The translations under genes were made by a program, and so were the position numbers. A DNA stretch of 64,000 bases from Naegleria gruberi (Eukaryota). The DNA is taken from assembly GCA_000004985.1 (NCBI GenBank), contig GG738896.1; one strand, given 5' to 3'. Below the pieces are notes generated by a model. It ran no database searches. It was not told the DNA's origin and worked only from the letters and a program-made list of their open reading frames with translations. Shown piece by piece: positions 5,024-52,806 of the stretch (position 1 is its first letter; each line of letters starts with the position of its first letter).

Positions 5024-5113
5024 TACATTCACAATGAAACTTATTCCTTGATATTCATTCCCGCCTTTGAAATAATTTTAGTTCCCAAGTGTTTGAGGAA
5101 CTTATTGAAAAAA

Positions 5114-9841: not shown

Positions 9842-10959
9842 ATGTCCACTTATAAAGACGCCTCTGAAGCTGTTCTCTATGATAAGAATGGTTTGCCAAT
9901 CTATGGTATGGATTTGGAATTGGTATGTAATGATTATTCGAAACTGTTAAACTAAACAATTTTTCTTTTCCTCATTATTATTAATAATAATACAACAAAT
10001 ATTTTCCATTGCCAAATCATTAACCTCATCCATTGTATCAAACATTCCATCCACTCCACACTATTCTTTTATACGAAACCTTTCATAAATTTAAACAACT
10101 ATAGTACAAGAAACAAGCCGGTAAATACGATTCTGACAAGGAAAGAGAAGTTCAACAATGGATCGAATCTGTTGTTGGTGAAAAATTTGCTTCCAACGAT
10201 TTCCAAGAATCACTCAAGGACGGACACTTGTTGTGTAAATTGATCAACAAGATTAAACCAGGTTCCATTCCAAAAATCAACCAATCTAAATTACCATTCA
10301 TGCAAATGGAAAATATTGGTTACTTTTTGAAAGCTGCTGCTGATTTGGGTCTCCAAAAGCATGATGCTTTCATGACTGTTGACTTGTACGAATCAAAGAA
10401 TATTCCACAAGTTATTCAATCACTTTTCATTTTCGGTTCAGTTGTCCAAAAATTGCCAGGTTACAATTTGCCACGTTTAGGATTAAAGTTGGCCGATAAG
10501 AGAGAAATTGAATTCACTGAAGAACAATTGAGAAAGGCCAATGCTGAAGTTGGTCAACAATATATGGCAAGTATTAAGCACGATACTGGTCGTTCAATTT
10601 CCAGAGAAGTTGTCAAGACTCGTGATACTGGTGATGCTTCAGTTACTTCTCAATTGAGTACTGCTTCCATTAAACATGACACTGGTCGTTCAATTTCTAG
10701 AGAAGTTGTCAAGACTAGCTCTACAGGTGACAAGCGTTTCACTTCTCAACAAAATGAAAAGTCAATCTCACACGGTCAAGATAGATCTATCAGTAATGAA
10801 GTTGTCAAGATTCAACCATCTTCATCCAAGAGTCCAACAACCTCCTCTGGATCAATGGATGGTTTGGAAGAATTGGAAAAATTGGCCTCATTGAGAGATA
10901 AGGGAATTTTGACTGAAGAAGAATTCCAACAAAAGAAGAGACAAATTCTCGGATTGTAA
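9842..10959 (+). CDS. Calponin-homology (transgelin/Scp1-like) protein with a C-terminal SHOCT-like motif, 2 exons (9842..9922, 10105..10959)
   Basis: Exon 1 encodes MSTYKDASEAVLYDKNGLPIYGMDLEL. The GTATGT donor is at 9923 and the acceptor AG at 10103-10104. Exon 2 holds the CH domain (YDSDKEREVQQWIE...GHLLCKLINKIKPGSIPKIN...FMQMENIGYFLKAA...VDLYE). Three internal IKHDTGRSISREVVKT repeats follow. The tail is LASLRDKGILTEEEFQQKKRQILGL. Confidence 0.75.
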
Positions 10960-19185: not shown

Positions 19186-20760
19186 ATGTGGAATGCGAAT
19201 TCTCCTGCGCCATGCTCATCAGGATCATCGGTTGATCAGCAGCAATACAGTCCACTTCCCATCGCCTCTATTCAACAATTTACATCAACAGTAACTCATC
19301 ACGAATTTGTAATGCACTCATCAGAATTATTTGTCGAATTATTTTGAATTCCTGATCGTAAAAAGAAGAATAATTCTGATTATTTGGATGCATATTTCAA
19401 GTCTACAAAGTCTTTTGATGCAAACAAGTATCAATCACAGATTAATCCACAAATTGTACGTCAAGTCCAAATATCAAGTAATGGTATCTCAGATCATTGT
19501 ACAAATGTGCGTTCGTGGTTTATTGAAACCATCATGATGAGAATGGGTATTTTCCTACCTGAGAACATTTCGTTGGTGAAGAGAATTGGAGAGGGAGCTT
19601 ATGGCAGCGTGTATAGAATTGGTAAAGATAAAGTGTTGAAGATTGCTAAAGATGGTGAAGCCATCAAGAAGTTTGATCATCCATTATTGTTGAGTATTGA
19701 GAGGCTTTTTTGGTATGAAGCTGAGAAACTCTTGTTGATTGTTTCTCCATACTATGAATTGGGACATTTGAGAGGTCAATTCACATTAGGTCAATATTGG
19801 TCAATTCTTTGTAATTTGACAAATGCTCTCAAGTATTTACATTCCCAACAAGTTGTTCATAGAGATATCAAGCCAGCAAACATACTTGTAGAAAAAAAGG
19901 ACAAATTTGAAGTGAAAGTTGTTTTAGCTGATTTTGGATTGGCGAAATCGTTCGATTCTTGCAGTGCAGGAAGTGTAGGAACGACCTACTTTGTAGCTCC
20001 AGAATTAATGAAAGGTTATGATGGAGAACATAGTGCTAGAAGAAGAGTTGCCAATGAGAAGAGTGACATTTTTTCTCTTGGAAAGACTATTAGCGTTCTA
20101 ATTTTGAATGACAAACCTGAAGATTTGGAATTTAAGAAGGGGAATTCACTCACCGAATTGCTTAATCGTATGATGAAGTACAAGCCAGAGAATAGACCTT
20201 CGACTGATGAAATTATTTCAATATGTGAAATGGAGATTTCAAAGCTTTCAGAGACTGATTACAATGCAATTTTCAAATTATCCGACAATGATATTGAAAT
20301 ATTTGATGAAATGAGCTTTTACACTGAAAGTAGTTTGAGTGATGGTTTGTTGAAAATGTTAATAAGCGGAGAAAGTTCTCAAAGTCAATCTGCTGTTAAA
20401 CATTCATACACGTTTGATCTTCACGATGACGGTGTTGTAAATGCCAAGAAAATAATTCACATCAAGTGCACACCAGAGGCAAGATTGGCCATCGAATCAA
20501 TCTATCTCAGAATTTACAACACCAAATTCAATACAGGACTCATTGATGTAACCAATTGCTTGTCCAAATCAGTTAGAGAAATATCCAATGATAATGAAAA
20601 GAAATATGCCATCTCTGGTTCACAAAAACAATATCTCATTCCTGCCAAGTCGAAATATCAAAATGAAAAAGGAAAGGACACTATTGAATTGTATATTAAT
20701 AATAGGGATGAACATGTGGCTTCAGCCAATTATGTCGCCAAGAATAATAAAAATAATTAA
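19186..20760 (+). CDS. Ser/Thr protein kinase; the core exon 19366..20760 is certain and the proposed 5' exon 19186..19308 is tentative
   Basis: The kinase core is LVKRIGEGAYGSVYRIGKDKVLKIAK (GxGxxG and VAIK-like), HRDIKPANILV, DFGLAKS, GTTYFVAPE. The TTG-initiated ORF at 19384 has no upstream ATG. An upstream ORF from 19186 (MWNANSPAPCSS...THHEF) ends at a GTAATG donor at 19309. A 57-nt intron to the acceptor AG at 19364-19365 (or 19367-19368) keeps the frame. Confidence 0.6.
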
Positions 20761-21034: not shown

Positions 21035-22714
21035 ATGAGCAAACGAAATAGACACAATTTTCCATTAATTCCGGAGAAGGAAATATTCAATAATAACACT
21101 CAAGCAAAAAAGAAAAAACTTGTACTCCATGAACAACGAGAAGAAATATTTTCAGATGATATTTGTTTTGAAATAATTTCCATGATTGATGATTCGTGGT
21201 TTATTTTAAATAATTGTACTTTAATTTCAAAACAATTCTTTAATGTGATCCGAGAACGTTCTAAACTTGTTATTCAATTTAAAAAAAAATTTACAGAGAA
21301 AAGAATTGAATTATTCATGAAAAGTCAATTCATGAATAGTATTGCTAATGTTAAATTTTCCGTTTACTCCTTAGACAATGCCAAATTCATAAGTGAAATG
21401 AAACAATTGACATCACTTGGTATTGCTGAAAATCGAATTGGTGATGAAGGAGTTAAATTCATAAGTGAAATGAAACAATTAACTTTACTTGATATATGTT
21501 GCAATGAAATTGGTGTTGAAGGAGCCACGTCAATAAGTGAAATGAAGCAATTAACATCACTTAATATTTCTGGCAATCGAATTGGTGATGAAGGAGCTAA
21601 ACTCATCAGTGAAATGAAGCAATTAACATTACTTAATATTGCTGACAACCGAATTTGTGTAGAAGGTGCAAAATCAATAAGTGAAATGAAACAGTTAACA
21701 TCACTTAGTATTTCTGACAACGAAATTGGTGTAGTAGGAGCAAAATTAATAAGTGAAATGAATCAATTAACATTACTTAATATTTCTAACAACGAAATTG
21801 GTGATGAAGGAGCCAAATTCATCAGTGAAATGAAACAATTGATATCGCTTGATATTTCTAACAATCTAATTGATATAGAAGGTGCAAAATCAATAAGTGA
21901 AATGAAACAGTTAACATCACTTGAGATTTATTACAATGAAATTGGTGATGAAGGAGTCAAATTCATAAGTAAAATGGAACAGTTAACATCGCTTGATATT
22001 TCTGGAAATCAAATTGGTGTAGGAGGAGCTAAATCAATAAGTGAGATGAAACAATTGACATTTCTTCAAATATTTTCCAATCGAATTGGTGATGAGGGAG
22101 CAAATTCAATAAGTGAAATGAAGCAATTAACATCACTTAATATTTATTACAATCAAATTGGTGATGAAGGAGTCAAATTCATAAGTGAAATGGAACAATT
22201 AACATCACTTGATATTGGTGGAAATCAAATTGGTGTAGGAGGAGCTAAATCAATAAGTGAGATGAAACAATTGACATTTCTTCAAATATTTTCCAATCGA
22301 ATTGGTGATGAGGGAGTCAAATTCATAAGTGAAATGAAGCAATTAACATCACTTAATATTTCTGGCAATCGAATTGGTGATGAAGGAGCCAAGTCAATAA
22401 GTGAAATGAAGCAATTAACATTACTTTACATTTCTAGCAACGAAATTGGTGATGAAGGAGTCAAATTCATAAGTGAAATGAAACAATTAACTTTACTTCA
22501 AATATATTCCAATCGAATTGGTGATGAGGGAGTCAAATCAATAAGTGAAATGAAGCAATTAACATCACTTAATATTTCTGGCAATCGAATTGGTGATGAA
22601 GGAGTCAAGTCAATAAGTGAAATGAAGCAATTAACATCACTTAATATTTCTAACAATCGAATTGGTGATGAAGGAGTCAAATTATTAACATCACTTAATA
22701 TTGTCTTATTTTAA
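21035..22714 (+). CDS. Leucine-rich-repeat protein (RNI-like, 24-aa repeats), intronless
   Basis: 559-aa ORF from the ATG at 21035. From about aa 120 onward there are roughly 18 tandem units of consensus ISEMKQLTSLNISGNRIGDEGAKS (72-bp DNA period). The N-terminus may contain an F-box-like stretch (ICFEIISMIDDSWFILNNCTLISKQFFNVI). Confidence 0.8.
   Translation: MSKRNRHNFPLIPEKEIFNNNTQAKKKKLVLHEQREEIFSDDICFEIISMIDDSWFILNNCTLISKQFFNVIRERSKLVIQFKKKFTEKRIELFMKSQFMNSIANVKFSVYSLDNAKFISEMKQLTSLGIAENRIGDEGVKFISEMKQLTLLDICCNEIGVEGATSISEMKQLTSLNISGNRIGDEGAKLISEMKQLTLLNIADNRICVEGAKSISEMKQLTSLSISDNEIGVVGAKLISEMNQLTLLNISNNEIGDEGAKFISEMKQLISLDISNNLIDIEGAKSISEMKQLTSLEIYYNEIGDEGVKFISKMEQLTSLDISGNQIGVGGAKSISEMKQLTFLQIFSNRIGDEGANSISEMKQLTSLNIYYNQIGDEGVKFISEMEQLTSLDIGGNQIGVGGAKSISEMKQLTFLQIFSNRIGDEGVKFISEMKQLTSLNISGNRIGDEGAKSISEMKQLTLLYISSNEIGDEGVKFISEMKQLTLLQIYSNRIGDEGVKSISEMKQLTSLNISGNRIGDEGVKSISEMKQLTSLNISNNRIGDEGVKLLTSLNIVLF
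21390..22690 (+). repeat. Intragenic 72-bp tandem repeat array (LRR units)
   Basis: The gtgaaatgaaacaattaacatcacttaatatttctggcaatcgaattggtgatgaaggagc... unit is repeated about 18 times with point variation. It produces spurious antisense ORFs at 21364..21720 and 22498..22680. Confidence 0.8.
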
Positions 22715-22901: not shown

Positions 22902-23183
22902 ATAGGGATGAACATGTGGCTTCAGCCAATTATGTCGCCAAGAATAATAAAAATAATTAATCGAATCCTAAGCTAATAAGAATCAAAAGGAAGTGCATTA
23001 GCCGGGAGTCGAACCCGGGTCACCAGCTTGGAAGGCTGGTATGATACCGTTACACTACTAATGCTTTCTTGCTTATTTATTTTCAACCTTAATGTTCCGG
23101 ATTAAGGGATGCAATATTTTTCTTAAAATAATTATTTATTTCAATAATCTCAATTAAAAGTGGAATGACATGTCAGAGAACTT
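22902..23183. repeat. 283-bp direct repeat, copy 2 (includes a pseudo-fragment of the kinase C-terminus and tRNA-Gly copy D)
   Basis: 22903-22960 repeats the last 19 codons plus stop of the kinase gene (RDEHVASANYVAKNNKNN*). The sequence through 23183 matches 20702..20984. Confidence 0.85.
22994..23064 (-). tRNA. tRNA-Gly (anticodon TCC), copy D
   Basis: Identical 71-nt sequence on the minus strand. Confidence 0.9.
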
Positions 23184-24860
23184 GTGTAAATTATCATCTA
23201 CAGATTGATTCAATAATTTTTGTTTGAAATTGTCTGCTGAGCCACGGAATTCTGCTATCAGAAGCATATTTACATCACATCCAGATTGCACATCCAAAAT
23301 ATCGTATTTTTCTTTGAATAATAACTCGGCCAATTTTCTATCCAACATCTTATTGGTTGCAGAAAGAGAAGATGGTGAAATAACAGAGACGTATGGAGAT
23401 TGAAATGGCAGAATTTCCTTTGAAACACCCGAATATTTACCACCTTGTGTGAATAGAGTCTTCTTATTGATTGTACCAAAAGAGCAATAGTATCCGCCAA
23501 AGAGTTTAATGTCCATCGAGCCCAAATCGCAATAGCTACTGAATAAATCCTGTTGTTTTTTTTCATTACTTGTAATGACTGGTTTTTCAAGAGGAGATGA
23601 GCTATTGATCCAGTGAGAGCTGTTTGACATGTGACCACCAGCAAATGCTCTTACGTTTCTTTCAATCAAATCAAATTCATTTCGTTCCTTTCCAATGAAA
23701 TGGAGAGAATTGTCTTCCAATTGAGCATAGACTCCATTATCAGTTTGTCCAATTTTTACAATAGGATATTTCAATGCATCTAGATTTGGAACTCGGTGTG
23801 TAGTTCCAGCAGTTACTTTCCATGCAGTTTCACCACAACTATAAATCAAAAATCTGTTAAAGACCAATGCACTTGAAAATGTACCACAAGTCAAGTCTGT
23901 CACTCTATAGGTTTCGTATGGATTTTCATCATGATTACCCGATTTAAAAATGTCAAAAGAATCATTCAAAACTTGATATTGAGGATTGAAATCTGCTCCA
24001 AACAATTGTTTGAAATAAGAGTGACCAGCTCCCAAAATAATATTCCTATTCACAACAATAATGGTATGGAACCAACCACAGGCAACAAAATCAACAGTTT
24101 GAATATTACTAAAATGTTGTCTGATAAAACTTTCTTGCTTTTCACTCCAATTACGAGTTCTAATGATAGAAGGCAATGCATTAGACATGGCAGATGTTAA
24201 ATAATCATTCAATGGTGAAAATAGCTCTACATATTCAGAGGGTTCAGTTTGTAACTGATTATAATTATTCTTTCCACAGCCAAATACTTTAGCATCACTC
24301 GCTATATTTGATTAACACAACAACAGTCAATAATATTAGCTACTTACTAGCAATCAATGAGTGAGATCTTCCGCAAGCAATAATATTCACTCGACTAAGA
24401 ATTTCTTCACTTTCATTATCAGAAAGTCCTTTAATTTGTGTAACTTCCTTCCATTCTTCCATTGAACTAACATCATTCCTATCAAAACCTAATTGTGCAC
24501 TATCATTAGATCCTATTTAAATATATTTGTAACGTTAAACTTCATCATGCAAACGTTTCGAAACTTACCTGAAGTAAATATCTTGGCTCTCTTGATAGAA
24601 TTGCCTGACGAGGCTGATGGTAATTGTCTCTTGGTTGCTGGATTTCTTTCCTTTTGCTTCTTTCTATTATTATTTGATAAAGTTGAATTATTCAGTGATG
24701 GTGAGGATATTATCGATGTTTCTGATGATGAAGGAGAAGACTGATCACTAACCACCTGATTCAAATCTTCATTCTGGTCCGATCGGTTGTTATTACTACC
24801 AAATAGCGATCCAAAAAATTGCTTCATTCTTTCAATGAGTTTTTTCAAGTGTTTTTTCAA
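23154..24860 (-). CDS. RCC1-repeat (beta-propeller) protein, 3 exons (24860..24569, 24512..24348, 24301..23154)
   Basis: The ATG at 24860 starts MKKHLKKLIERMKQ.... Minus-strand donors are GTAAGT at 24568 and GTAAGT at 24347, with acceptors AG at 24514-24513 and 24303-24302 (56-nt and 46-nt introns). The spliced protein has RCC1 signatures GSNDSAQLGFD, ACGRSHSLIA, VFGCGKNNYNQL, ACGWFHTIIV, LGAGHSYFKQLG. Confidence 0.7.
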
Positions 24861-25111: not shown

Positions 25112-26368
25112 TTAGAGAGCTTTCCAGAATTGTCTGATACCGAGAAGGAGCATAGTAAGGGAGAAGGTATGCTTTAAAACTTGTTCGTCCATGTTGCTGG
25201 CAAGGAAACCTCCACTGTAAGCTCCTACTGCACTTCCTGTCATTAAAATTGGAGCTAGTTTGAGAATGACATTTCCAACTCTCCAATGTGAATAGAGAGC
25301 TACTGAAGAAGGGATGGTCATGGCAGCAAGTGAAGTACCAATGACTAGTTTTGTTGATGTGTGTTCCTTTTTGATTGGTGACTTGTCACTCCATAAAAAA
25401 CTCAACGCTGGAACAATTAGAATTCCACCACCAACTCCAAGTAAGCCACTCATCACACCAATGATTGAACCCAAAACAAAGAGAGCTCCTGCTTCTTGAA
25501 TGGATGGTAATTTCAATTTCTGATTTGTTTCAGATTGTTCCTTTGTGCTATCACTCACTGGTTTCTCCTTCTCATCGTCAGAATGAAGCAATGAAACAAG
25601 TGGAGCCACAAACAACATGAAACAGGCAAGAATTAATTTTAAAGTCCTATCCTGAATCGAGCTCGATAATTTGACTCCAAATCTTGCAGTAAAGGCAGCA
25701 AAAGTTGCAATCAAAATTGATGTTACAATATCTACAGAATTATCACCAACAAAATACAATGTACCAGCTCCCACAAAGCCAGCAGTCACAACAGTCACTA
25801 GACAGGTGGCTACAATCTGCTTGGCGCTCAATAAATGTGGAAATAATTGAGTAATTAATGGAATTAAAATGATATTTCCACCCAAACCAACCATTCCACC
25901 AAAAGTTCCTCCCACAATAGAAACTCCAAATAATTTTACAAAATCCCAAGTATTAAACACTGGATTTGGTTTTGTAATTTGTTCATCCTTTTTCATATTT
26001 GAATTTTCCTTATTGTCTGATGAAGAACAAGTCGAATCGGAATTGGTTTGCAAAGATGAAGCTTCCTTTTCCCTCATCAACACTCCCCTACTCCATTCTC
26101 TCTTAATAACCCTTCCAAAATTCATCAATAACCCTTCCGAAGATCCTCTATAATTAATATTCCCATGTTTCTTTTCAAATTCATCATCATGATTATTTAC
26201 AATTTTAAAATTTCTAAAATCTGGCAAAGATTTCTTCATCAACAAATTATTGTTGTTATTATGCAAAGATAATTTTGCTAATCCCGAACCCACAACAACA
26301 GTAGAAATTTTCGGTGGCATCTTACAAGAAGATGTGGAGATGAAAATGGTCGCAGATCGTTTGAGCAT
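25112..26368 (-). CDS. TauE/SafE (TSUP) family membrane permease
   Basis: 418-aa ORF. It has two copies of the TSUP motif set (GGTFGGMVGLGGNIILIPL and GLLGVGGGILIVPAL) and multiple TM segments. Confidence 0.7.
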   Translation of the reverse strand: MLKRSATIFISTSSCKMPPKISTVVVGSGLAKLSLHNNNNNLLMKKSLPDFRNFKIVNNHDDEFEKKHGNINYRGSSEGLLMNFGRVIKREWSRGVLMREKEASSLQTNSDSTCSSSDNKENSNMKKDEQITKPNPVFNTWDFVKLFGVSIVGGTFGGMVGLGGNIILIPLITQLFPHLLSAKQIVATCLVTVVTAGFVGAGTLYFVGDNSVDIVTSILIATFAAFTARFGVKLSSSIQDRTLKLILACFMLFVAPLVSLLHSDDEKEKPVSDSTKEQSETNQKLKLPSIQEAGALFVLGSIIGVMSGLLGVGGGILIVPALSFLWSDKSPIKKEHTSTKLVIGTSLAAMTIPSSVALYSHWRVGNVILKLAPILMTGSAVGAYSGGFLASNMDEQVLKHTFSLTMLLLGIRQFWKAL

Positions 26369-27848: not shown

Positions 27849-30800
27849 ATGATGAAAGGATATCTAACCACCCTTGTTATCTTTCTCTATTGTTGCTACT
27901 GTTTTCTCTCTTCAATAGCGTTGGTACAGGTGGGAAATTGTGCATCAATTTCACAGCAAACATTTTCATCTCTACTCAACTCGACTGAAACTCCGATTCT
28001 CTCCTTGACAATGTATCTCGGCGGAGCTAAATCTCCAACCAGTGATTCTACCAGTTGGGGTAATTTATGTGGAGTTGCAATGGAAAACCCTTGCAAAAGT
28101 TTTGGTCAATTGATGATCAGTTTTAATTCGACTTTGTTTAATTTGCATGAAAATTTCACAAATTTACAAGTTGAAAGAAATGTTTATTTGAAGATTTATT
28201 TGTTATCTAGTGATGGATCGGTTGTGTGCTCGAATAATCAGGTGGATTTGGGGATGGTTTCATCGATGAAATATTTTGTGGAAATTACAAAAATAGACGA
28301 AACTAAACCCTTGTTGATTTGTTCGAATACAGTTAATACTTACCTGAGTATTCCAATTCCACCTCAGATCAACGTCATTTACTTTCATTCTTTGAAATTT
28401 CAATCACTCTTGATCAAATATGACAATTCCAAATCAAGACCACTTGACATTTTGATTGAGGATTGTGAAATGGTGAATGTTTCAATTGAAGAATATAGAA
28501 AATCAATTCGAGATGATTGGGCAAAATATTTTATCATGGAGAATTCAAAATTTATTTCCAATATCTTTCCTCTCAAAATTCTCTATACGAATCAAGTCAT
28601 TATCGTAAAATCTCAATTTAATTACATGCTTGGAGTTCAATTTGGACACTCAGTAACTATACAAGAATCGGTAATTCTTGGACACCCTTCAATTATCTCG
28701 AATTTACAGACCTTTCGGATAACTAATTCATCCCTAGAGTCAGTTGGCATTCAAAGTGTGGAAAATGTGGATTTCATTGGTGTGTTTTTCTTTGAATCCA
28801 AATTGTATCAGACATCAATTTCAATTTCTCAGATAACTGGTTTCTCTGGCAACAAGTGGACTTTCACGGATTGCATTTCAAAACGAGTGGAAAATTTTGC
28901 ATCTATTCGCTCAGTGGAAAGTGTTCTAATTGAGAATATTTTATTGGAAAGTTCAGGTTCGATTAGTAATGGAATGGTGCCTTTTATTTATTTAGATAGT
29001 TGCAATACAGTGACCATGCTTAGGAATATCATTAAGAAAGGGGTTTCCTTCATTCAGATTAATTATTATTATACTGTGCAAATAGTTTCGTCTCAATTTT
29101 ATAATAATGCTCCGTTGCTTATTGATAGATCTTCACCAATTGAAACATCCCAAAGTAGAATTTCAATCATTAATTCAAAATTTTCTGGATCTGTTTCTAG
29201 ATATGGACCAGTCCAAATTAATTATTGCACTAATTTAAATATTTATGGTTGTGTATTTAATGATAATATAGCAACAGTGTCTGGAGGTGCTTTGTTCATT
29301 GGAAATTTAGTACATTCTTCACAAATAGCTGAAAGTTATTTTATTAATAATCAAGTGGCATGTGAAGGAATTCCAAATATGGAAAAATGTTCTGGTGGAG
29401 CAATTTCATATACCAATAGTGAAAACTCGAATGGAATTTTAATTGAAAAATGTAATTTTAGAAATAATGTTGCATCTAGAGGTGGAATTTTATATTTTGG
29501 AAAGAATAATGCCTATATTAGGGTTACTAATTCGACTATGGAAAACAATCAAGCCAAGTTGACTGGAAGCATTGCTTATTTTAATTACAAGGAAGAAAGG
29601 TATTTCCAAATGATTGATGTTAATAGGAAGAATAATTTTTCACCAACAAGCATTGATTTGGCTGAGAAGATTTCGTATAATTCAGCTTCAATTATGGGAA
29701 TTTCCAATGAGAATGATGTATATGAATTGTCCATTGGGAAAAAGTATTCACTTAACCTTACTGGTACGGATGGATATGGAAATCAAACTAATCAAGTTAT
29801 TGATCAATTATCAATAGAATCATCTGATTCTCGTTTGACAATGACATTAGATCAGCAACTAGATTCGATTACTTTCCAACTATTCTTCCTTGATTCGGCT
29901 CAGAATTTCTCATTGCTGGGTTTCAAAAATACTTTTAAAATTACAACACCTAACAACCCTGTCAATCTTTCCATTATAATCAAATCATGTGATACAGGTT
30001 TTGAAATAACAAGTACAGTTACCGAAAAAACTGGAATTTACTTGTACGATTGTCGACCTATTCCTGTATTCCCTATTGGAATATTATTGGGTTTAGTAAT
30101 TGGATGTTCATTATTTGTTTTTATTTTAGGAGTTTCTATTGGATTGGCAAGTTATTGTTTGTGGAATGTTGTTAAAAAGTTGAGAAAACTCAGACAAAAG
30201 GAAATTGCAGAGAAACAAATGGAAGACGCTTTATTGAATAAGAGAATAATATTCAACATGACAGAGGATGAGGAGGAATACTATGAGAAACGACCAGAAG
30301 CCGAATCTGGTAGTAAGAATTCAAAAGCTTCCTATCAGAAACTTCCTGATTCTGAACTAAGTTCTTCCTTAATGAATCAAAACAAGACTAAACATAGATA
30401 CAGCATGTCCTCTTCATTCATCATCCCAATAGAAGATATCACAATTATCAAAAAGATTGGTGAAGGAGGTGCTGCAAATGTTTATTACGGAACTTGGACG
30501 AATATTAAGGTTGCAATTAAATCTCTCAAATCTGAAATTAACGAAGATTTCGAACAAAATTTCGAAAGAGAAGCTTCCATTTTGAGTAATATTAGACATC
30601 CAAATGTTTTAACGTTTTATGGTGTTTGCTTAACAGATAAAAGTCGATACATTGTAACTGAATATATGGAGAAGGGAACATTGGAAAAATTTATATACGA
30701 AAGTAGAAATAGAGGAATGAATATTGAGCTTCTCAAGACTATTCTGACATTATTGTGTGGAATTTCTAATGGAATGCAATATCTTCATGCACTTAAACCT

Positions 30801-31435
30801 GCTGTCATTCACAGAGATTTGAAATCGAGTAATATTTTACTTGATGAGAGGAATAATCCAAAAGTTTCGGATTTTGGATTGGTGAAAGTTTTAGGAACGA
30901 ACACAATGCAAACTCAAATGACGAAAGCCATTGGAACCATCTTTTTCATGGTAAGTATTGTAAAATTTAATTCGAATCTCACTAATTTTCTCAAAGGCAC
31001 CAGTAAGTATTTCTATATTTCGATTGACTTGAATCAAAATTTATTGAAATTTGACAGGAATCTTTCATGACTGATCATCCAATTGATAATAAGGAAGCAG
31101 CAACCAAACTAGATGTCTACAGCTTTTCAATCTTAATGTGGGAATTATTCTTTAGGAAAAGTCCCTACCATCACGTCAAGAATACTTTCAAAATTCCACA
31201 ACTAGTTTGCGATGGTGAAAGACCTCAAATACCCTTCTCTGTTGGAAATCAAGAAGAAATTAGGGAATGGTTATTGGAAAGTAATGGAGAATCTAATTCT
31301 GATGTGGTGATACAGTGTATTGATCGATATTTTTCACTTGTTGTAAAGTGTTGGAATCACAATCCATTGGAAAGACCTTTATTTTCGAATATTAGACAAG
31401 AATTGGAAGAAATATTGTCAAGCATTAACCATTAA
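27849..31435 (+). CDS. Receptor-like TKL protein kinase: signal peptide, beta-helix-repeat ectodomain, single TM, cytoplasmic kinase; 3 exons (27849..30950, 30997..31002, 31058..31435)
   Basis: Signal peptide TLVIFLYCCYCFLSSIALVQ. The ectodomain carries repeated N..A..GGA.Y/F units (CVFNDNIATVSGGALFIG, KCSGGAISY, NNVASRGGILYFG, NQAKLTGSIAYF), typical of parallel beta-helix or Pmp-type repeats. The TM segment is IGILLGLVIGCSLFVFILGVSIGLASYCLW. The kinase shows IKKIGEGGAANVYYGTW..VAIK, HRDLKSSNILLD, DFGLVKV. The GT..MAPE motif is restored only by splicing a 6-nt micro-exon GCACCA (Ala-Pro) between GTAAGT introns of 46 and 55 nt. Confidence 0.8.
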
Positions 31436-38611: not shown

Positions 38612-40123
38612 ATGAACAAAATCTTCTCACTCTGCTTACTCGCATTGTTCTGTGCAGTTCTTTTCTGCGCTTCCACTTCTGAAGCCTTGAGCGTCATCAA
38701 AACCGTTCAAGCAAAGGCTGTCCCTGCCAATAAACCAAAACAACAAAAAGGAAAGAAATTTGGTAAACTCTTGAAGAAGGGTGCTTCCAAGAAGCAAATT
38801 AAGAAGGCTGCTAAGAAAGCTATCAAGAAATCAAAGAAGGAATTGAAGAAGGCTACCAAGAAGGTTAAGAAGGCTGCTAAGAAGAATCTTGCCAAGTGGA
38901 GAGCTTTGTGGGCTAAGTATAAGAGAATTGCTCAACGTGCTTTGAGAAAGTTTAGAAGAACTCAAAGGTAAGTGTCATGTCATTCGTGTTGACAATTAAC
39001 GAATAATTTTATTTGTTATCCTCTCTCTCGCTTGATGACTAAATTACGGAAAATATTCGAATGTTTATTATCATCATCATTTTGATTAACATACAACAAC
39101 AATTTGTGGACAATTTGTGTGATCATCATGTTGGAATGTCATGACTTTACAATATATTCTAAACGTATGATTAGAAAGTTGAAGAGAGCTCGTAGATCTG
39201 CTTCCAGAAAGACTGTTAGAAAGTTGAAGAAACAAGCCAAGAAGGCCAAGAAGACTGCCAAGAAGGCCCAAAAGAAGGTCAAGAAGGCTTCCAGAAAGGT
39301 TAAGAAGGCTAAGAAGCAAGTCAAGAAGGCTGCTAAGAAAGCTGCTAGAAAGCTCCAAAAGAAGGCTGCTAGAAAACTCAAGTTGAGCAAGACTTCTATC
39401 AAGAAACTCAATGCTACTGTTAAGAAGTTGTTAAAGTTGAAGAAGAAGTTGGGTAAGAAGTTCTCCAGAAAGTCAATTCCTGCCAAGATTAAATTGTTAG
39501 CTGCCAAGTTGAGAATTATTAAGAAGTGTAAGATTTCAAAGAAGTCTGCTGCTAAGAAGGCAAAGAAGGTTGCTGGTAAGAAGACTGCCAAGAAGGCCAA
39601 GAAGCAAGTTAAGAAGGCAAAGAAGGCTGAAAAGAAGGCTAAGAAGCTCGTCAAGCAAGCTAAGAAGGCTGCTAAGAGTGGAAACAAGAAGGCTGCCAAG
39701 AAGATTGCCAAGAAGGCTATTGTCAATGCTAAGAAGTCAATTGAAGTTGCCAAGAAGTCAGTTACTGTTGCTAAGGTTGCTGTTGAAAAGGCCAAGCAAG
39801 TTTTCACTACTATTGTCAACAAGCTTAAGGAATTAGTCAAGAAGGCTCAAATCACCGTTCAAACTGGTAAGACTACTGAAATCAAGAAGATTCAAAAGAA
39901 GGTTGAAGTTGTTAAGAAGACTGTCAAGAAGGCCAAGAAGAATGTCAAGAAGGCTCAAAAGAAGGCTAGAAAGGTTGTTAAGAAGGCTAAGAAGGTCATC
40001 AAGAAGGCCAAGAAGGTTCAAAAGCAAGCCAAGAGAGTTCTCAAGAATAAGGTCACTAAGAAGGGTATCAATAGACTTGTTAACAAGTTGATTAGACTCC
40101 AAAAGTGTTCCAAGAAGAACTAA
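38612..40123 (+). CDS. Secreted lysine/alanine-rich polycationic protein, 2 exons (38612..38967, 39175..40123), about 450 aa
   Basis: Signal peptide MNKIFSLCLLALFCAVLFCASTSEA. The rest is KKAxKK-type low complexity. The exon-1 frame ends at a GTAAGT donor at 38968 (phase 2). The acceptor AG at 39173-39174 continues the same KKA repeat frame of the 39104 ORF (…RTQ-R-KLKRARRSASRK…). Confidence 0.6.
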
Positions 40124-45562: not shown

Positions 45563-46830
45563 TTATAATTGTTCTTCTTGTTGTTTTTGTTCTTCAGTAG
45601 TGTATTCATAAACATAATCAGTAATAATTTCCTTAGCTTCATCAGATAAATATTTAGAAATTGCTTTCTGGTCAACTTTAGCGAGAGAATCCCACTCATT
45701 CGAATGTTCCTTCTTGAAATCTGCCAAAATATCCTGAACAAACAAAGCCAAACACTTATTTCTCAATTTAAATGAAGTGATAATATTACCAATTTTGGAA
45801 ATGGCAGATTCCAATCGATTATCATTCAAATATTGAACTATTAAATCGAATACTGGAGTGGAAACAGATTCATTATCAAAGGTTGGCTTTTTGGTTTTTT
45901 TTCTAGGTCTTGGTGGCTTTTTTGGTTGCACAACTTCCTTAAATGCTTCATTCTTCTTCTTGATAATAAATCGTTCTCCCTTTTCCTTTGTGAACATATC
46001 TCTGATTGGCTTAATAACCACTCCTTCACAGATATTTGGACATGATTCAACGAGTGGGAGGTTGTAGAATAATTGTGGAATTTTGGTTGGATAATTGCAA
46101 TCGTATTCTAAACATTCTTCCAAAGTTCCTCTCATCACTTCTTTGGCATATCGAGAAATTCCACATTCAGTGAGTAATTGAATCATCTTGTCATAGGCCA
46201 AATAGAATCCTTCTTCCTTCTTTGTTTCTACATTTAATCCAAATACATAGACATCGAACATATAGAAATCATAATCAGGAGTATAATACACATGTTTTTG
46301 AATTGGATATCTTCCTTTTACATTTTCTATTTGATCATGAGGATATTGACCTCCAAAACTATTTCAAGAATTCCAAAATAAATAAATTTTACACTTAAGG
46401 ACACTTACATTTCTCCATAGAAATTAGCTCTTCTCACCTTAAAATTATCATTCGAATAGATATCACAAATACTCTTAAAAACCTTCTTTATCTGTTCCTC
46501 ATATCTATTCCTCACAATCTCCACAGCCTCAGGAAAGAAATCGTCATCTTCATGAGGTGATTTTTTCTTCTTTTGTTTTTCCTCTTCATCCAATCCAACA
46601 TATTGTCTTCGGGATGCAACCTGGCATTGAATATCTTCCACAAGACACGAATTGGCAGTCTGATAATTATCCCTCCACATTACAAAACTAAAATTACATC
46701 CATGAATCTTTTCAGAGACAACCCAAGGAATTGATGGATCATAATTCTCATCACGGATTAAATTCTTGGCAAATTCTTGATAGTGATTCTCGATGGAACT
46801 GTACGCTTTGAAATGATGTTGATTCTTCAT
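45563..46830 (-). CDS. Rnl2-family ATP-dependent RNA ligase-like protein, 2 exons (46830..46409, 46358..45563)
   Basis: Motif I VVSEKIHGCNFSF is like KIHGTN of T4 Rnl2 and kinetoplastid REL1. The minus-strand GTAAGT donor at 46408 and AG acceptor at 46360-46359 (50-nt intron) join ...ANFYGE-I-FGGQYPHDQIENVKGRYPIQKHVYYTPDYDFYMFDVYVFG. Confidence 0.65.
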
Positions 46831-47012: not shown

Positions 47013-47960
47013 TTAAATGGCAGTTCCAGTTTCAGTCAATTGACCAAGACATTGTCTAGCTCCAACCTTTGAAATGGTTGGCCAAACTTGATTATCAATC
47101 TTATCAATCTTTGTCTTGTTCAAAACAATGACCTTCATATATTGTAAATAATAGTAAAGTTCCTTATCTGATTTTTCACATTCTCTCAATTTCTTATCCA
47201 AATCAGAGATGGAACGACCCAAACAATTCAACTTGACATTTCCTCCCCAAACATCTTTCAACCATCCACCAAATTTGTTCATGGTAATTCTGTCAGAATA
47301 AATTGGGACGAATTGATATTCGAATTTGGTGAATTCCTTTCTAGCAATAAGTTCTGAAACGAATTTTGCAACATCTTCATAATTGGAAATTTCAAATTCT
47401 TCATCACCAGTTCCATAGAAATTCAAAGCATGTTTCTTAGTATCGACAATGAAGGAAACTTGGAGCAACTTTTCAATAAAGATACCACACAAGATGGAAA
47501 TCCATTTCAATTGAGTATTCTGATTCAAGAGTGCGTGAACCTTCTTTCTTACATCAATTCTAGGCAACATTTCTGTATTATCAAGTTTAGTAAAATCAAT
47601 ACTAAAGTCAGATGGAATGTAATACTTGACGTTGGCCTTGATACATGATTCAATGACACGAGTTTCAGCTTTCAATTCTTCTTCATGATCGAAAAAGTTC
47701 ATACAATTCAACACCAAAGTGAAATCTTTGAGAATATTAACGAAATCTTCACATGAATCTTTCAAGACATCGAAACAGAAAATCTTTCCATTAAGCTTCT
47801 TCTCCCATACGTTCAATTTGTCACGACTTTCGGATGGAACTAACAAGGAGCATTTAACATCTTTTTGATGATTTTCGCACAAGTTTTTGACTATTTGGCA
47901 ACCAAGATGACCGGAAGCACCAAGGATTAGGACATTCAAATCAGAGATTTTAGATTCCAT
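47013..47960 (-). CDS. NmrA-like / atypical SDR NAD(P)-binding Rossmann protein
   Basis: N-terminal NVLILGASGHLGCQIV (GxxGxxG), 315 aa, NmrA-like length and pattern. Confidence 0.65.
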   Translation of the reverse strand: MESKISDLNVLILGASGHLGCQIVKNLCENHQKDVKCSLLVPSESRDKLNVWEKKLNGKIFCFDVLKDSCEDFVNILKDFTLVLNCMNFFDHEEELKAETRVIESCIKANVKYYIPSDFSIDFTKLDNTEMLPRIDVRKKVHALLNQNTQLKWISILCGIFIEKLLQVSFIVDTKKHALNFYGTGDEEFEISNYEDVAKFVSELIARKEFTKFEYQFVPIYSDRITMNKFGGWLKDVWGGNVKLNCLGRSISDLDKKLRECEKSDKELYYYLQYMKVIVLNKTKIDKIDNQVWPTISKVGARQCLGQLTETGTAI

Positions 47961-48148: not shown

Positions 48149-49312
48149 TCAACAATTATTCATACGGTAAGCAAATGCATACTGAAGAGGAAATTGTAAA
48201 TCTTGAATTGAATCTTCCTTTGAACTAATCTCAAAATAAACTAATTTTGCATTTGAGAATTTCATTGCATCATTATATGTGGGCACAAGTTCAGCAATAT
48301 ATTCAGAAATTACTTGTTGAGAGACTTGTCTTTTCAAATCCCTCTTCATTCCCAAAATAATAAACAGTATGCTATCTTTTCTGGTATCTTCTTTCATTTC
48401 TCTGAAAATGTAAAATTGCTGGTCCAAATCGACAACTTGTTTTTTCATATCCTCAAATGAGGCGGAATCACTCAAATCAAAGCAGAAGAAAACAACACGG
48501 GCTCCTCTATAGTAAGATAATGAGTTATGTGAAAATTGTGGATCACCACTTGTGTCCCAAATTAGAAATTTCATCATACATTGACTATCGTTAAAGTATT
48601 TCGGATAGAATTCCACGCCAATTGTTGGACGATATATACTGCTAAATTCTGATTGGTGTAACCTTTTCAAATATTCACTCTTTCCACATTTCATAGGTCC
48701 TAACAATGTCACATTATGGAGATAGTCAATTTTCTTCTCTGGACGAGATTGACTCTTTCGAATTTCACTCATAAATCTTTCATACAATAAAACATAATCC
48801 CGTGGATGCACCATCTGCATCTGACTCTTCTCGTATGCAACTGGTTTGAAATGTATCCAAGTTTCATTGGCAAGCTTATTCAATTCTTGTCGCCAAAAAA
48901 TATCCAATCCCGACCAAACGTTGAAACTCTTTGAAACTCTTTCCATCATTATAACATCAAAGATTGTAAGATAATCCATAATGTGCATTTTCATCTCATC
49001 AGGTAATTTGATAATTAAAATTCCTAATTTTGTTGTTATTATTGAATTGTTAGTTTCATCATGTATACTATCAATTTGTTGTTGTTCATTGAAATTTTCA
49101 TCATGATCACAATTAATTAATTGATTATTATTCCGATCATCTTGAGAAATTAAATTATTCTCTTCTTGCTGTTCCGATGTGTTGGGAAGACTTTGAACCA
49201 ATGCTGAATATCTCGCTGATGAAACCAATTTCCAATGCGAAAATTGTTGATATCTTGAAAAATCGATTACCTTTCTAGTACTACTTGCTGGCGGCACTTG
49301 TTTTTGTCCCAT
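48149..49312 (-). CDS. Chimeric F-box / Rab-like small GTPase protein, single exon
   Basis: The ATG at 49312 starts MGQKQV.... The F-box-like stretch is LPDEMKMHIMDYLTIFDVIMMERVSKSFNVW. The GTPase domain shows GPMKCGKSEY (P-loop), YRPTIGVEF (Rab switch I), LIWDTSGD (G3), and ILGMKRDL (G4, NKxD-like). Confidence 0.65.
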   Translation of the reverse strand: MGQKQVPPASSTRKVIDFSRYQQFSHWKLVSSARYSALVQSLPNTSEQQEENNLISQDDRNNNQLINCDHDENFNEQQQIDSIHDETNNSIITTKLGILIIKLPDEMKMHIMDYLTIFDVIMMERVSKSFNVWSGLDIFWRQELNKLANETWIHFKPVAYEKSQMQMVHPRDYVLLYERFMSEIRKSQSRPEKKIDYLHNVTLLGPMKCGKSEYLKRLHQSEFSSIYRPTIGVEFYPKYFNDSQCMMKFLIWDTSGDPQFSHNSLSYYRGARVVFFCFDLSDSASFEDMKKQVVDLDQQFYIFREMKEDTRKDSILFIILGMKRDLKRQVSQQVISEYIAELVPTYNDAMKFSNAKLVYFEISSKEDSIQDLQFPLQYAFAYRMNNC

Positions 49313-50408: not shown

Positions 50409-51314
50409 TTAAGCATTGAAACCAGCAGCTCTAACAACTTGTGCAGAGGTGTATGATGAAACACTGAATCCAGAATCATTAACTTCGAAAACACCATTAG
50501 AGTAACTCTTAGCCAAAACCCAATGTCCACCATTTCTGACGTTCAAAATGACAACCTTTCCTTGACAGACCCAATTGATAATAGCTTGCTTATCAGTAGT
50601 TTGTCCAAGATAATTGAATCCAAGTCTAGAAACAGCTCCCCAAACAAACAAATTTCCATAATAACCTCCATTCTTCAACAAGTATTGGTTCAATTGACCT
50701 GGGTTCATTGAACTCTTTCCTCTACCATTCAAAGCAGAACAAACTGAATTCATCAAACAACCAACTTGACAAATAGTGGAAGAACTTCCAAGTCTATCAC
50801 CACCCCATCTAGAATCACATTGTTTAAAGAGTGGATAATTGTAATTTTGTCTACAACCAGATGTAGAACCACCACCACCACCTCCATTTTGAACAACAGT
50901 TAAGAAATTAGAGGCAGCATAACCAGTTCCAAAACTACCAGAAACCTTATACCAAGTATAACCACATCCACTTTGGACTTCACCAGTGAATTTGACAACT
51001 TGACCATTTCCAAGAGTAGTAATAATTGATTTACCAGTGCATGGTCCACTTCTGACATTCAAAGCAGTGGTTGCTTTCAAGGAAGCTCCACTAGCAATTG
51101 ATGAATCAGATTCGGCATCTGACATTTCGAAATCTTCTTCAGATTCGGATTGAACACTTTGAATGGCATTAATTGGAAGATCAATAGCGAAATTGGTGGC
51201 CAATGAAGGTTCTCCAACCAATTTGACACTTCTATTGTTTGGATAAGCACGTTGACAAGAGACAACGACAGCAAATGTCAAGAGCAATAAAATTCCCACG
51301 AAGATTTTGTTCAT
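50409..51314 (-). CDS. Secreted bacterial-type cell-wall hydrolase-like protein: signal peptide, SH3b domain, Gly linker and papain-like C39-type cysteine peptidase domain
   Basis: The ATG at 51314 starts MNKIFVGILLLLTFAVVVSCQ (signal peptide). The SH3b-like segment is LNVRSGPCTGKSIITTLGNGQVVKFTGEVQSGCGYTWYKVSGSFGTGYAASNFL. A GGGGGGS linker follows. The peptidase module has Cys in QVGCLMNSVCSAL and His in NGGHWVLA, then NDSG. No intron. Confidence 0.6.
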   Translation of the reverse strand: MNKIFVGILLLLTFAVVVSCQRAYPNNRSVKLVGEPSLATNFAIDLPINAIQSVQSESEEDFEMSDAESDSSIASGASLKATTALNVRSGPCTGKSIITTLGNGQVVKFTGEVQSGCGYTWYKVSGSFGTGYAASNFLTVVQNGGGGGGSTSGCRQNYNYPLFKQCDSRWGGDRLGSSSTICQVGCLMNSVCSALNGRGKSSMNPGQLNQYLLKNGGYYGNLFVWGAVSRLGFNYLGQTTDKQAIINWVCQGKVVILNVRNGGHWVLAKSYSNGVFEVNDSGFSVSSYTSAQVVRAAGFNA

Positions 51315-51729
51315 TTTTTTTGTGATGATTTTTTGGCAGTTGAAAGGTTGAATATTAAAATCAAATTGCTGCTCAGCCAATACGGATAATAAACATGAAC
51401 GAGATGGTAATGAAAGAATAAAAATAGAATGTTAAATAATTGGGGCATTATGATATTGAGGGGGCATTGAAACGAATCGAATAGAAAATGTGCATTTATT
51501 CCAAACAAAATACTAAGTGATGCTTGAAAGGTAATCTTGCGCTGGAGTAACCGACAACATGATCTTGAAATGCATGCTTGTTGTTTGAAGAAGGTGGTTA
51601 TTGTAATAGTTTGTGATTGTTCAAATGGATGTTAGATAGAGAAATTTCAATCTTTTTGCATCTACAGTTCTATCAAATAACTTCTTTCCAATATTCGAAT
51701 AAGATTTTTACAAAATATACAATAGGATT

Positions 51730-52806
51730 TTATGCCTCCTTGTTTGGAATTGGAGATTCAGATGGATATGTTATCTGTTCGTTTGGAGCCTCAATTGAAA
51801 ACATATCTTTACCATTATAAATAAATTTCTTACTCTTGTACATGTATTCATATTCATTCCTAAATGAATCTGCAATCTGACACCACAATGAGGCATTTTC
51901 CTCAATATCAAGTTCAGTTTTTCCATCCAACCATATCAGTGCAATTCGAATCTTGTCTCTTAATGATTCCATTGTGGCAATCTCTGAAAAGATAAACGTC
52001 CTGTTTGTAACTGTATCCTTCTGGCAATGTTCCTTTTCAAACTCTTGTTGATAAATCTTGGGTATCGACATTTTAGCCCACAAATGATACAGGTAATTCC
52101 TAGCTGATTTGTAATCATTCAATTCTCCATATTCATCTGTGAGTGAATCAATATCAAAAGAAAACCAATCGATTGGCATTTCTACTTGTTGTCTACTTCT
52201 CATTGAAGAAGACAATGGTTTGAAATTAAAAACTGGAAAATCTCCCAAATCCAATTCATCTAACATGTCTGCACTTTTCCAATACTCTTCTTCCTTTTCA
52301 AAGAAATTAGATGAAAATCCTAGAGGGCTCTTCTTATCATTACAAGGTGATCGAACATATTCATTTGGATTACTAAATGGAAATCTATTATCCCATTCCT
52401 TCTTTACAGATCTGACACTATTCGATCTCTCAATAGGTTCACAAGCCCACCTCGAAAGTAACGACGAATTCATCGTCATTGTTGATGAAGAAGGTACTGA
52501 AGATTTAGATCTTTGAGAGGAGTAGGATCTCGTCGATGGAGAGGTAGAATACATAGTCCTAGTGGTACTTGGGTTGGATCGGGATTGAGTCTTATTCATA
52601 CTATTAGATTCATACCCGATGGGATTATCAAATTTACTCCTAAATTTAGCTAGTTTTAGTCTCTTCTTTTGTTGGTAGGTGAGTTGTTGTTGTTGTGCTT
52701 GTTGTTTATCCATGCTGTTCATTCCCTTAAAGGTTTGTAGGGGTGGCGGTTGTAAATGTACAAGATGTTGATGATCCGACCTCTTTGATGACATTGTAGT
52801 GGTCAT
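51730..52806 (-). CDS. Hypothetical Ser/Thr/Gln-rich protein (358 aa)
   Basis: The ATG at 52806. The N-terminal half is low complexity and the C-terminal half is more ordered. No known domain. Confidence 0.4.
   Translation of the reverse strand: MTTTMSSKRSDHQHLVHLQPPPLQTFKGMNSMDKQQAQQQQLTYQQKKRLKLAKFRSKFDNPIGYESNSMNKTQSRSNPSTTRTMYSTSPSTRSYSSQRSKSSVPSSSTMTMNSSLLSRWACEPIERSNSVRSVKKEWDNRFPFSNPNEYVRSPCNDKKSPLGFSSNFFEKEEEYWKSADMLDELDLGDFPVFNFKPLSSSMRSRQQVEMPIDWFSFDIDSLTDEYGELNDYKSARNYLYHLWAKMSIPKIYQQEFEKEHCQKDTVTNRTFIFSEIATMESLRDKIRIALIWLDGKTELDIEENASLWCQIADSFRNEYEYMYKSKKFIYNGKDMFSIEAPNEQITYPSESPIPNKEA

Follow-up and report, generated by a model that had tools for sequence, protein, structure and literature searches.

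What kind of protein is encoded at positions 27849-31435 of this stretch of Naegleria gruberi DNA (contig GG738896.1; the whole 64,000 nucleotides analysed are called the window below)? The preliminary description, made from the letters, read it as a receptor-like kinase whose outer part resembles the polymorphic membrane proteins (Pmps) of bacteria. We believe this is right in outline and wrong about the extent of the resemblance. The product is probably a receptor Ser/Thr kinase of the tyrosine kinase-like (TKL) type, crossing the membrane once in the type I orientation, with a Pmp-type beta-helix ectodomain and ligand-driven inward signalling. What is new here is that ectodomain, since the receptor-kinase architecture on which it sits is otherwise familiar.

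The first question is whether the parts of such a receptor are present and in the right order. A leader, an ectodomain of ~715 residues, one transmembrane (TM) helix, a basic juxtamembrane helix, a Ser-rich linker and the kinase follow one another as listed here:

27849-27920, + strand: N-terminal hydrophobic leader, residues 1-24, from hydropathy; cleavage probably after SIA.
27927-28373, + strand: N-terminal ectodomain region, residues 27-175, with a conserved C-G-x5-P-C loop; predicted local distance difference test (pLDDT) <50; 51% identical to the paralogue P0005.
28374-29078, + strand: predicted beta-helix rungs without Pmp motifs, residues 176-410, from the structure model.
29079-29648, + strand: Pmp-type repeat block, residues 411-600, from FxxN...GG(A/I) pairs and PMP sequence similarity.
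29649-30068, + strand: membrane-proximal all-beta stalk, residues 601-740, strands at pLDDT 40-55; conserved Cys before the TM helix.
30069-30146, + strand: single TM helix, residues 741-766, from hydropathy and a helix in the AlphaFold (AF2) model.
30147-30248, + strand: conserved basic juxtamembrane helix, residues 767-800, KKLRKLRQKEIAEKQMEDALLNKRIIF, from the family alignment; helical in AF2.
30249-30437, + strand: acidic, Ser-rich linker, residues 801-863, ending in a conserved SSSF-IPIEDI, from the family alignment.
30438-31405, + strand: TKL-like Ser/Thr kinase domain, residues 864-1152, spanning both introns, from Pfam, motifs and best matches.

There are only two hydrophobic segments in the protein, at residues 5-29 (the leader) and 735-775 (the TM helix, with a Kyte-Doolittle maximum of 2.69). 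A single-sequence AlphaFold model of residues 1-785 has a mean pLDDT of 34 and is usable for the TM helix alone; there residues 741-784 form a confident helix. A putative signal peptide and a single TM segment between ectodomain and kinase, as had been proposed, are both found by hydropathy, the second of them also as the AF2 helix. A Lys/Arg run, WNVVKKLRKLRQKE, stands directly after the TM helix, and because it comes after the single TM segment the C-terminal part should be cytoplasmic. With a leader, an extracellular domain, one TM helix and a kinase in one polypeptide, the protein has the predicted layout of a receptor (transmembrane) kinase.

The kinase domain is complete. It matches PF07714 at 188.7 bits (cut-off 23.1, E 1.6e-55) and PF00069 at 164.8 bits (E 3.4e-48). 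All the catalytic motifs are present: GEGGAANV at residue 871, VAIK at 888, the alphaC Glu at 907, HRDLKSSN at 988, DFG at 1008, APE at 1035 and DVYSF at 1055. The kinase is of the RD type and has a Thr-rich activation loop, TNTMQTQMT. The nearest solved single kinase domains are those of CTR1, TNNI3K and RIPK2, plus ABL, ITK and EGFR; the first three are TKL-group kinases, and the Lys of HRDLK (or HRDLK..N) marks Ser/Thr rather than Tyr kinases. The Pfam and best-match evidence fits a TKL-like Ser/Thr kinase, and the TKL-type kinase expected at the C-terminus is thus in place.

Is the ectodomain really related to the Pmps? An exhaustive phmmer search with the protein against 1.84 billion representatives gave 68 matches, most of them long multi-repeat proteins that align only at residues ~440-590, in up to 16 stretches each. 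The best of these (P0002-P0004) have E values of 1.5e-53, 7.7e-45 and 7.3e-24 over residues ~453-570. On the Pfam model Chlam_PMP (PF02415) the same three score 266-370 bits (P0002 307), and one also matches Beta_helix; for the multi-repeat matches with E from 1.5e-53 to 1e-24 the scores on this model are 220-370 bits. A profile of the ectodomain family (alignment A2) retrieves 20 further proteins, with a best E of 2.6e-39, and nearly all of them carry PF02415, with or without PF13229. When this profile was split in four and compared with the collected proteins, PMP similarity was confined to the part for residues 411-600, where E values go down to 1e-161 in what is a small local database; the parts for residues 27-175, 176-410 and 601-740 matched none of the collected PMP proteins. 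The ectodomain-family profile had no meaningful match among PDB sequences, and a word-index search with the ectodomain alone found no homologue. Judged by these comparisons, residues 411-600 are homologous to the FxxN/GGA repeats of the Chlamydia Pmp type. The match to P0002 and those of the family profile bear out the relationship that had been claimed. It does not go beyond the repeat: the protein has no Pfam match to the autotransporter beta-barrel (PF03797) or to the Pmp middle region, and it is not a member of the chlamydial Pmp family proper.

The preliminary description had repeats running across an ectodomain of ~700 residues. It was correct about their kind and not about their extent, since all of them lie within residues 411-600 and only three are strict pairs. 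GG[AISL] sites occur in the ectodomain at residues 58, 479, 516 and 545 only. The strict pair pattern, F..N-(3-20)-GG[AI][ILVF], is found as FNDNIATVSGGAL at residue 470, FINNQVACEGIPNMEKCSGGAI at 498 and FRNNVASRGGIL at 537; these three compare with 0.01 expected, and three were reached in 0/5000 shuffles of the ectodomain. A looser fourth Pmp-type unit, MENNQAKLTGSIA, is at residue 564. Upstream of these, the family alignment adds two units that keep the canonical form in N. fowleri and Willaertia and have decayed in both N. gruberi paralogues (for example FYNNAPLLIDRSSPIE against FISNSAETGGAIYV). The block has ~6 units in all and makes up about a quarter of the ectodomain. In the unit at residue 498 a Cys-x8-Cys insertion, ACEGIPNMEKC, separates the two motifs (residues 502-515, bracketing Cys at 505-514), and the paralogue keeps this Cys-bracketed insertion as ECVDNIPNLEIC. 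We take the loop at residues 505-514 to be a candidate exposed loop.

AlphaFold with the 4-sequence alignment A2 gave a mean pLDDT of 61.7 and a predicted template modelling score (pTM) of 0.60. At residues ~176-606 the chain forms short strands, and most 10-residue blocks have a mean pLDDT of 75-95. The model predicts a single right-handed parallel beta-helix for this region, of the pectin-lyase-like kind, as had been anticipated for the ectodomain. Of the two outcomes that the preliminary description named as refuting, a different fold and a missing TM segment, neither was obtained. For residues 176-410 the structure model is the one source of this assignment. Foldseek against the PDB listed almost exclusively right-handed beta-helix proteins, among them the following (with the three values recorded for each):

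GH87 alpha-1,3-glucanase: 24.7, 2.8, 297.
GH110: 24.5, 2.7, 299.
Vag8 autotransporter passenger: 24.1, 3.5, 352.
RbmB lyase: 23.8, 2.9, 269.

Further matches were NosD, AlgE4, AlgG, polygalacturonases, the adhesins PfbA and EtpA, pertactin and many phage tailspikes. In Pmps the FxxN and GGA motifs are buried elements of the beta-helix rungs, and variable loops emerge between them (PMC10715098, PMC11166332). The modelled fold of residues 411-600 agrees with these published analyses; here too the motifs are predicted to be buried in the rungs, with loops projecting from one face. Because they are buried structural elements (PMC10715098), the motifs tell us nothing about sugar binding.

The beta-helix is a common fold in polysaccharide enzymes, and it is also found in adhesins. 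The protein could be a membrane-tethered carbohydrate-active enzyme, with the beta-helix acting as a polysaccharide lyase or hydrolase and the kinase as an accessory. We find this very improbable. At E<=1 the protein has no match among the Pfam families Pectate_lyase, Glyco_hydro_28 and Beta_helix, and identity to the enzymes is only 8-13%. A catalytic ectodomain is unlikely because the sole sequence homology is to the PMP repeat, which is non-enzymatic, and comes without a glycosidase or lyase family signature.

Could the union of ectodomain and kinase be a product of the gene model? The list of open reading frames (ORFs) has a 1073-codon ORF at 27849-31070, then a 122-codon ORF in a different frame that ends at 31435. 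We read positions 27849-31435 (+) as one N. gruberi gene of 3 exons, with a coding sequence of 3486 nt or 1161 codons:

27849-30950, + strand: exon 1, codons 1-1034, an unbroken ORF with leader, ectodomain, TM helix, juxtamembrane region and kinase to ...GTIFFM, then GTAAGT.
30951-30996, + strand: intron 1, 46 nt, GTAAGTAT...AAAG, from reading the sequence.
30997-31002, + strand: putative microexon, 6 nt, GCACCA, the Ala-Pro of the kinase APE.
31003-31057, + strand: intron 2, 55 nt, GTAAGTAT...ACAG, from reading the sequence.
31058-31435, + strand: exon 3, codons 1037-1161 and stop, kinase subdomains VIII-XI.

This splice pattern is predicted from reading the DNA. Excising the two introns restores the reading frame and the kinase MAPE motif. 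The spliced segment reads ...GTIFFM-AP-ESF..., and with the microexon included it aligns without a gap with GTVYYLAPETF of the paralogue. Keeping intron 1 and removing intron 2 was rejected, as a stop codon comes five codons later. Skipping the microexon keeps the frame, loses the Ala-Pro of APE and would leave an APE-less kinase. An intron is found at the intron 2 position in a N. fowleri paralogue (FYMSN/gtaagt...aag/EMISGD, locus L001 ~21200-21270, minus strand), and none at this position in N. fowleri FDP41_004237 or the Willaertia gene. DNA-level tandem repeats are absent from the receptor-kinase gene. None of this touches the fusion itself, which is not a gene-model artefact because exon 1 holds the ectodomain, the TM helix and kinase subdomains I-VIII in one frame.

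It might still be argued that the gene is an artefact in a wider sense, a chimeric assembly or a contaminant, or that it is dead, a pseudogene or pseudokinase. The protein, or one nearly identical to it, is indeed missing from the collections searched: three gene-model variants were absent from a collection of 15 billion proteins by exact look-up, and phmmer found no near-identical sequence in the 1.84 billion representatives. The gene may lack an annotation, or its product may have been kept out of the databases. The G-loop is also non-canonical, and the APE depends on the microexon. Against this stand 1161 stop-free codons, spliceosomal introns, the presence of K, E, HRD and DFG, and paralogues or homologues in three species that keep the order of the parts. 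The gene is also flanked by exact N. gruberi genes, and we consider an artefact or dead gene extremely unlikely. In this AT-rich window (GC about 0.31-0.37), four neighbouring intron-less ORFs match N. gruberi proteins of one 331,721-bp scaffold exactly:

2161-3126, - strand: NAEGRDRAFT_72315.
25115-26368, - strand: NAEGRDRAFT_72326.
47016-47960, - strand: NAEGRDRAFT_72338.
51733-52806, - strand: NAEGRDRAFT_52141.

How widely is this architecture distributed? Among the 1.84 billion representatives, matches extending past the PMP block come from four only, which belong to N. gruberi, N. fowleri and Willaertia magna, in keeping with the suggestion of a lineage-specific sensor. Homologues with this architecture were found in Heterolobosea only: N. 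gruberi has one paralogue, N. fowleri two genes next to each other, and Willaertia a single gene. The paralogue is represented by P0001 and P0005, that is N. gruberi EFC35522 (partial, on a 4.9-kb contig) and NAEGRDRAFT_75121; since their juxtamembrane segments overlap identically, these are probably pieces of one paralogous gene on another scaffold. We rejected the idea that P0001 and P0005 represent an orthologue from another species: the ORFs that neighbour the gene studied here match NAEGRDRAFT proteins exactly, so the relation is that of paralogues. The paralogue is 67% identical to our protein in the kinase, 51% in the N-terminal region, 45% in the Pmp block, 38% in the stalk and 33% in the non-Pmp rungs. 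By these figures the ectodomain is diverging faster than the kinase, as is expected of a receptor.

The first N. fowleri homologue, FDP41_004237 (P0020/P0069, 1259 residues), aligns across the whole ectodomain. It passes the kinase models, Chlam_PMP (40.4 bits) and the NCBIfam model POMP_repeat (TIGR01376; 37.1 bits, cut-off 15). The second, ~8 kb away at locus L001, has Pmp-like units, a TM segment, the shared juxtamembrane motif and kinase exons. Willaertia magna ABK040_005612 (P0039) scores 31.8 bits on Chlam_PMP and 18.4 on TIGR01376; its annotated model ends early, while the genome encodes the entire kinase contiguously. A Cys immediately before the TM helix is common to 5/5 family members, as is the juxtamembrane motif (K/R)KL(K/R).L..KE.AE......(L/I).(D/E/N)K..(I/V)(F/L). 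Juxtamembrane residues K47, L48, L51, K54, E55, A57, E58 and K68 (numbered in the aligned segment) are invariant in all five. SSSF-IPIEDI precedes the G-loop in the family, and it was not seen in the aligned exon fragment of the adjacent N. fowleri gene.

In other lineages no protein was found that has both PMP repeats and a kinase. Two candidates from other organisms picked by a regular expression for 'kinase + GGA' (P0034, P0066) were false positives. Within the 64-kb window there are no paralogues of the receptor kinase. The only other kinase match there, at 19384-20757 (+), is unrelated: it is a cytosolic protein kinase that lacks a TM segment and shares 26% identity with the kinase domain of the receptor. 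In N. gruberi, N. fowleri and Willaertia alike, the receptor-kinase gene has RCC1-like repeat genes beside it (window 23157-24311, - strand; L001 3833-9202; L002 8640-11924 and 13878-14386). This could be a conserved neighbourhood or mere abundance of the RCC1-like family.

Two diverged paralogues in one genome would also suit homotypic self-recognition. By analogy, the PMP block might make receptor-receptor contacts between or within cells, and the signal would then report cell contact or density. Motif-bearing chlamydial Pmp fragments form homo- and hetero-oligomers, which counts in the same direction. The argument is purely analogical, however, and the motifs are buried in the predicted Pmp rungs (PMC10715098), and we judge this reading quite improbable.

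Several results weigh against a receptor kinase with a Pmp-type beta-helix. The protein itself falls below the PF02415 cut-off (13.1 against 20.6 bits, E 0.13), and TIGR01376 has no match in it. The proposed PF02415 search thus had a divided outcome, with this protein sub-threshold and the N. fowleri and Willaertia homologues passing. The structure model is built on 4 sequences and is unreliable at residues 27-175 and 607-742 (pLDDT below or near 50). The Foldseek values are weak, with E 1.8e-3 at best and template modelling scores (TM-scores) of 0.1-0.3, and AF2 is reported to over-predict beta-solenoids for repeat sequences (bioRxiv 10.1101/2024.10.30.621056). In the kinase, the third Gly of the G-loop is replaced by Ala (GEGGAA), and the APE motif depends on an inferred 6-nt microexon.

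If the protein is a ligand-driven receptor kinase, how would it work? The all-beta stalk would hold the beta-helix above the membrane, where an extracellular ligand would bind its exposed face or loops. The ligand might be material from the surface of prey or substrate, or a second copy of the receptor. Its binding would alter the oligomeric state of the receptor, and the TM and juxtamembrane helices would pass this change across the membrane. The RD-type kinase would then trans-autophosphorylate the Thr-rich activation loop and signal inwards.

Published work assigns Pmps a role as adhesins and in the interaction with the host (PMC10715098, PMC11166332), and Naegleria is a bacterivorous phagocyte (PMC9928731). 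It can be argued from this that the protein is an adhesion or phagocytosis receptor. The Pmp-like beta-helix would then be mainly an adhesin for bacterial prey or substrate, by analogy with chlamydial Pmps and other beta-helix adhesins, and the kinase would regulate the cytoskeleton locally instead of signalling the presence of a soluble cue. We regard this as possible, though somewhat doubtful. It overlaps with the ligand-driven receptor kinase and differs from it only in the kind of ligand and the output. An adhesin-like or prey-recognition role is plausible.

How does the predicted receptor kinase compare with known systems? It has in common with chlamydial Pmps the paired FxxN and GGA(I/L/V) motifs, the predicted right-handed beta-helix rungs and a variable loop between rung motifs (here residues 502-515). 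Pmps are surface-exposed (PMC10715098, PMC11166332), and surface exposure is likewise predicted here. Pmps, however, belong to the type V autotransporters of bacteria; their rungs are regular and number 9-25, and the C-terminus is a beta-barrel. Our protein comes from a eukaryote and is predicted to be a type I membrane protein. It has only ~6 Pmp-type units, of which half have decayed, and beyond these it has rungs of a non-Pmp kind, a stalk, one TM helix and the kinase. Trichomonas, of another lineage (Metamonada) than Naegleria, also has Pmp-like proteins, and we know of no report of a kinase domain in them. They are surface proteins of a eukaryotic protist with Pmp-signature motifs, according to Handrich et al. 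as cited in PMC10715098.

The plant RLK/Pelle receptor-like kinases (RLKs; leucine-rich repeat (LRR) RLKs and others) resemble our protein in having an ectodomain, one TM helix and a TKL-like kinase. A full-length word-index search (E<=1e-40) missed the Naegleria relatives; among the matches listed were only two plant LRR-RLKs, found through the kinase. The resemblance to these is limited to the kinase, at 27-29% identity over 25% of the query, and we know of no class of plant RLK that has a parallel beta-helix as its ectodomain. The ectodomains of the Entamoeba histolytica transmembrane kinases (TMKs) are Cys-rich CXXC-type repeats and not beta-helices. The well-studied receptor-kinase classes all use other scaffolds as far as we know, for example LRR, Ig/FN3, EGF, lectin or Cys-rich repeats. 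The Entamoeba TMKs, also from an amoeba, form a multigene family of receptor kinases that span the membrane once, and their kinase domains fall near the TKL/Raf/STKR groups (PMC10463195). The preliminary description had called the protein unlike animal or plant receptor kinases; the kinase and the topology are all that it shares with the plant, animal and Entamoeba classes. Trypanosomatid DGF-1 proteins, from another Discoba lineage, are membrane-anchored surface proteins made of right-handed parallel beta-helix modules (bioRxiv 10.64898/2026.07.27.741050). Unlike our protein they have no kinase; they carry seven beta-helix modules in tandem, together with a hat domain and several TM helices, and the same study finds no DGF-1 module matches in N. 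gruberi.

In the literature searched, which did not include the N. gruberi genome paper, no such receptors were described for Naegleria. Naegleria is not mentioned in a cross-kingdom survey of protist transmembrane kinases, and neither are PMP or beta-helix ectodomains. The Naegleria pangenome paper lists G protein-coupled receptors, histidine kinases and cyclases as sensors, and no receptor kinases (PMC9928731). In no receptor kinase outside Naegleria and Willaertia did we find an outer domain of this type, a predicted beta-helix with Pmp-type repeats.

It is what the ectodomain recognises that defines a receptor kinase, and with a Pmp-repeat beta-helix the known scaffolds would gain one that is familiar mainly from bacterial adhesins and polysaccharide-processing enzymes. 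The family is a concrete candidate for prey or surface detection by Naegleria amoebae. At least two homologues occur in the brain-eating N. fowleri; they are predicted to be surface-exposed and have a kinase that is possibly druggable, which may give the family practical interest. It is a small family with a function predicted from sequence, so the immediate impact is modest. A bolder idea is that the Naegleria/Willaertia ancestor captured a bacterial-type Pmp adhesin module and fused it to a TKL kinase. From this would have come a class of pattern-recognition receptors specific to Heterolobosea, which would detect bacterial or host surface material and drive feeding, or invasion in N. fowleri. 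Chlamydiae, or other bacteria hosted or eaten by amoebae, might be the source of the module. We think this unlikely, but if it is true, receptor-kinase 'innate immunity' would have been invented independently here, with a beta-helix as the scaffold.

The window holds other genes of note. At 39104-40120 (+) there is a 339-codon ORF without a Pfam match that is extremely Lys/Ala-rich (low complexity of the KKAKK type); the long ORF at 39142-39846 on the opposite strand looks like a compositional mirror artefact. A 559-residue protein at 21035-22711 (+) consists of near-identical ~24-residue RNI-type leucine-rich repeats (ISEMKQLTSLNISGNRIGDEGAK...; LRR_6 274 bits). Two proteins join an F-box to an unusual partner: at 5048-6655 (+) Kelch repeats precede it, and at 48152-49312 (-) a Ras/Roc-like small GTPase comes after it. 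The ORF at 10105-10956 (+) has a calponin-homology domain, a C-terminal SHOCT and internal repeats (...IKHDTGRSISREVVKT...). A phage T4 Rnl2-like RNA ligase (RNA_ligase and T4_Rnl2_C) is present in this eukaryotic genome at 45566-46363 (-). The protein at 50412-51380 (-) looks secreted, with a hydrophobic leader, a bacterial-type SH3_3 domain and a Gly run, and might be bacterial-wall-binding or laterally acquired. A single 2593-codon ORF at 53041-60819 (-) encodes a channel of the IP3-receptor/ryanodine-receptor type, with Ins145_P3_rec, MIR, RIH, RIH_assoc and Ion_trans domains.

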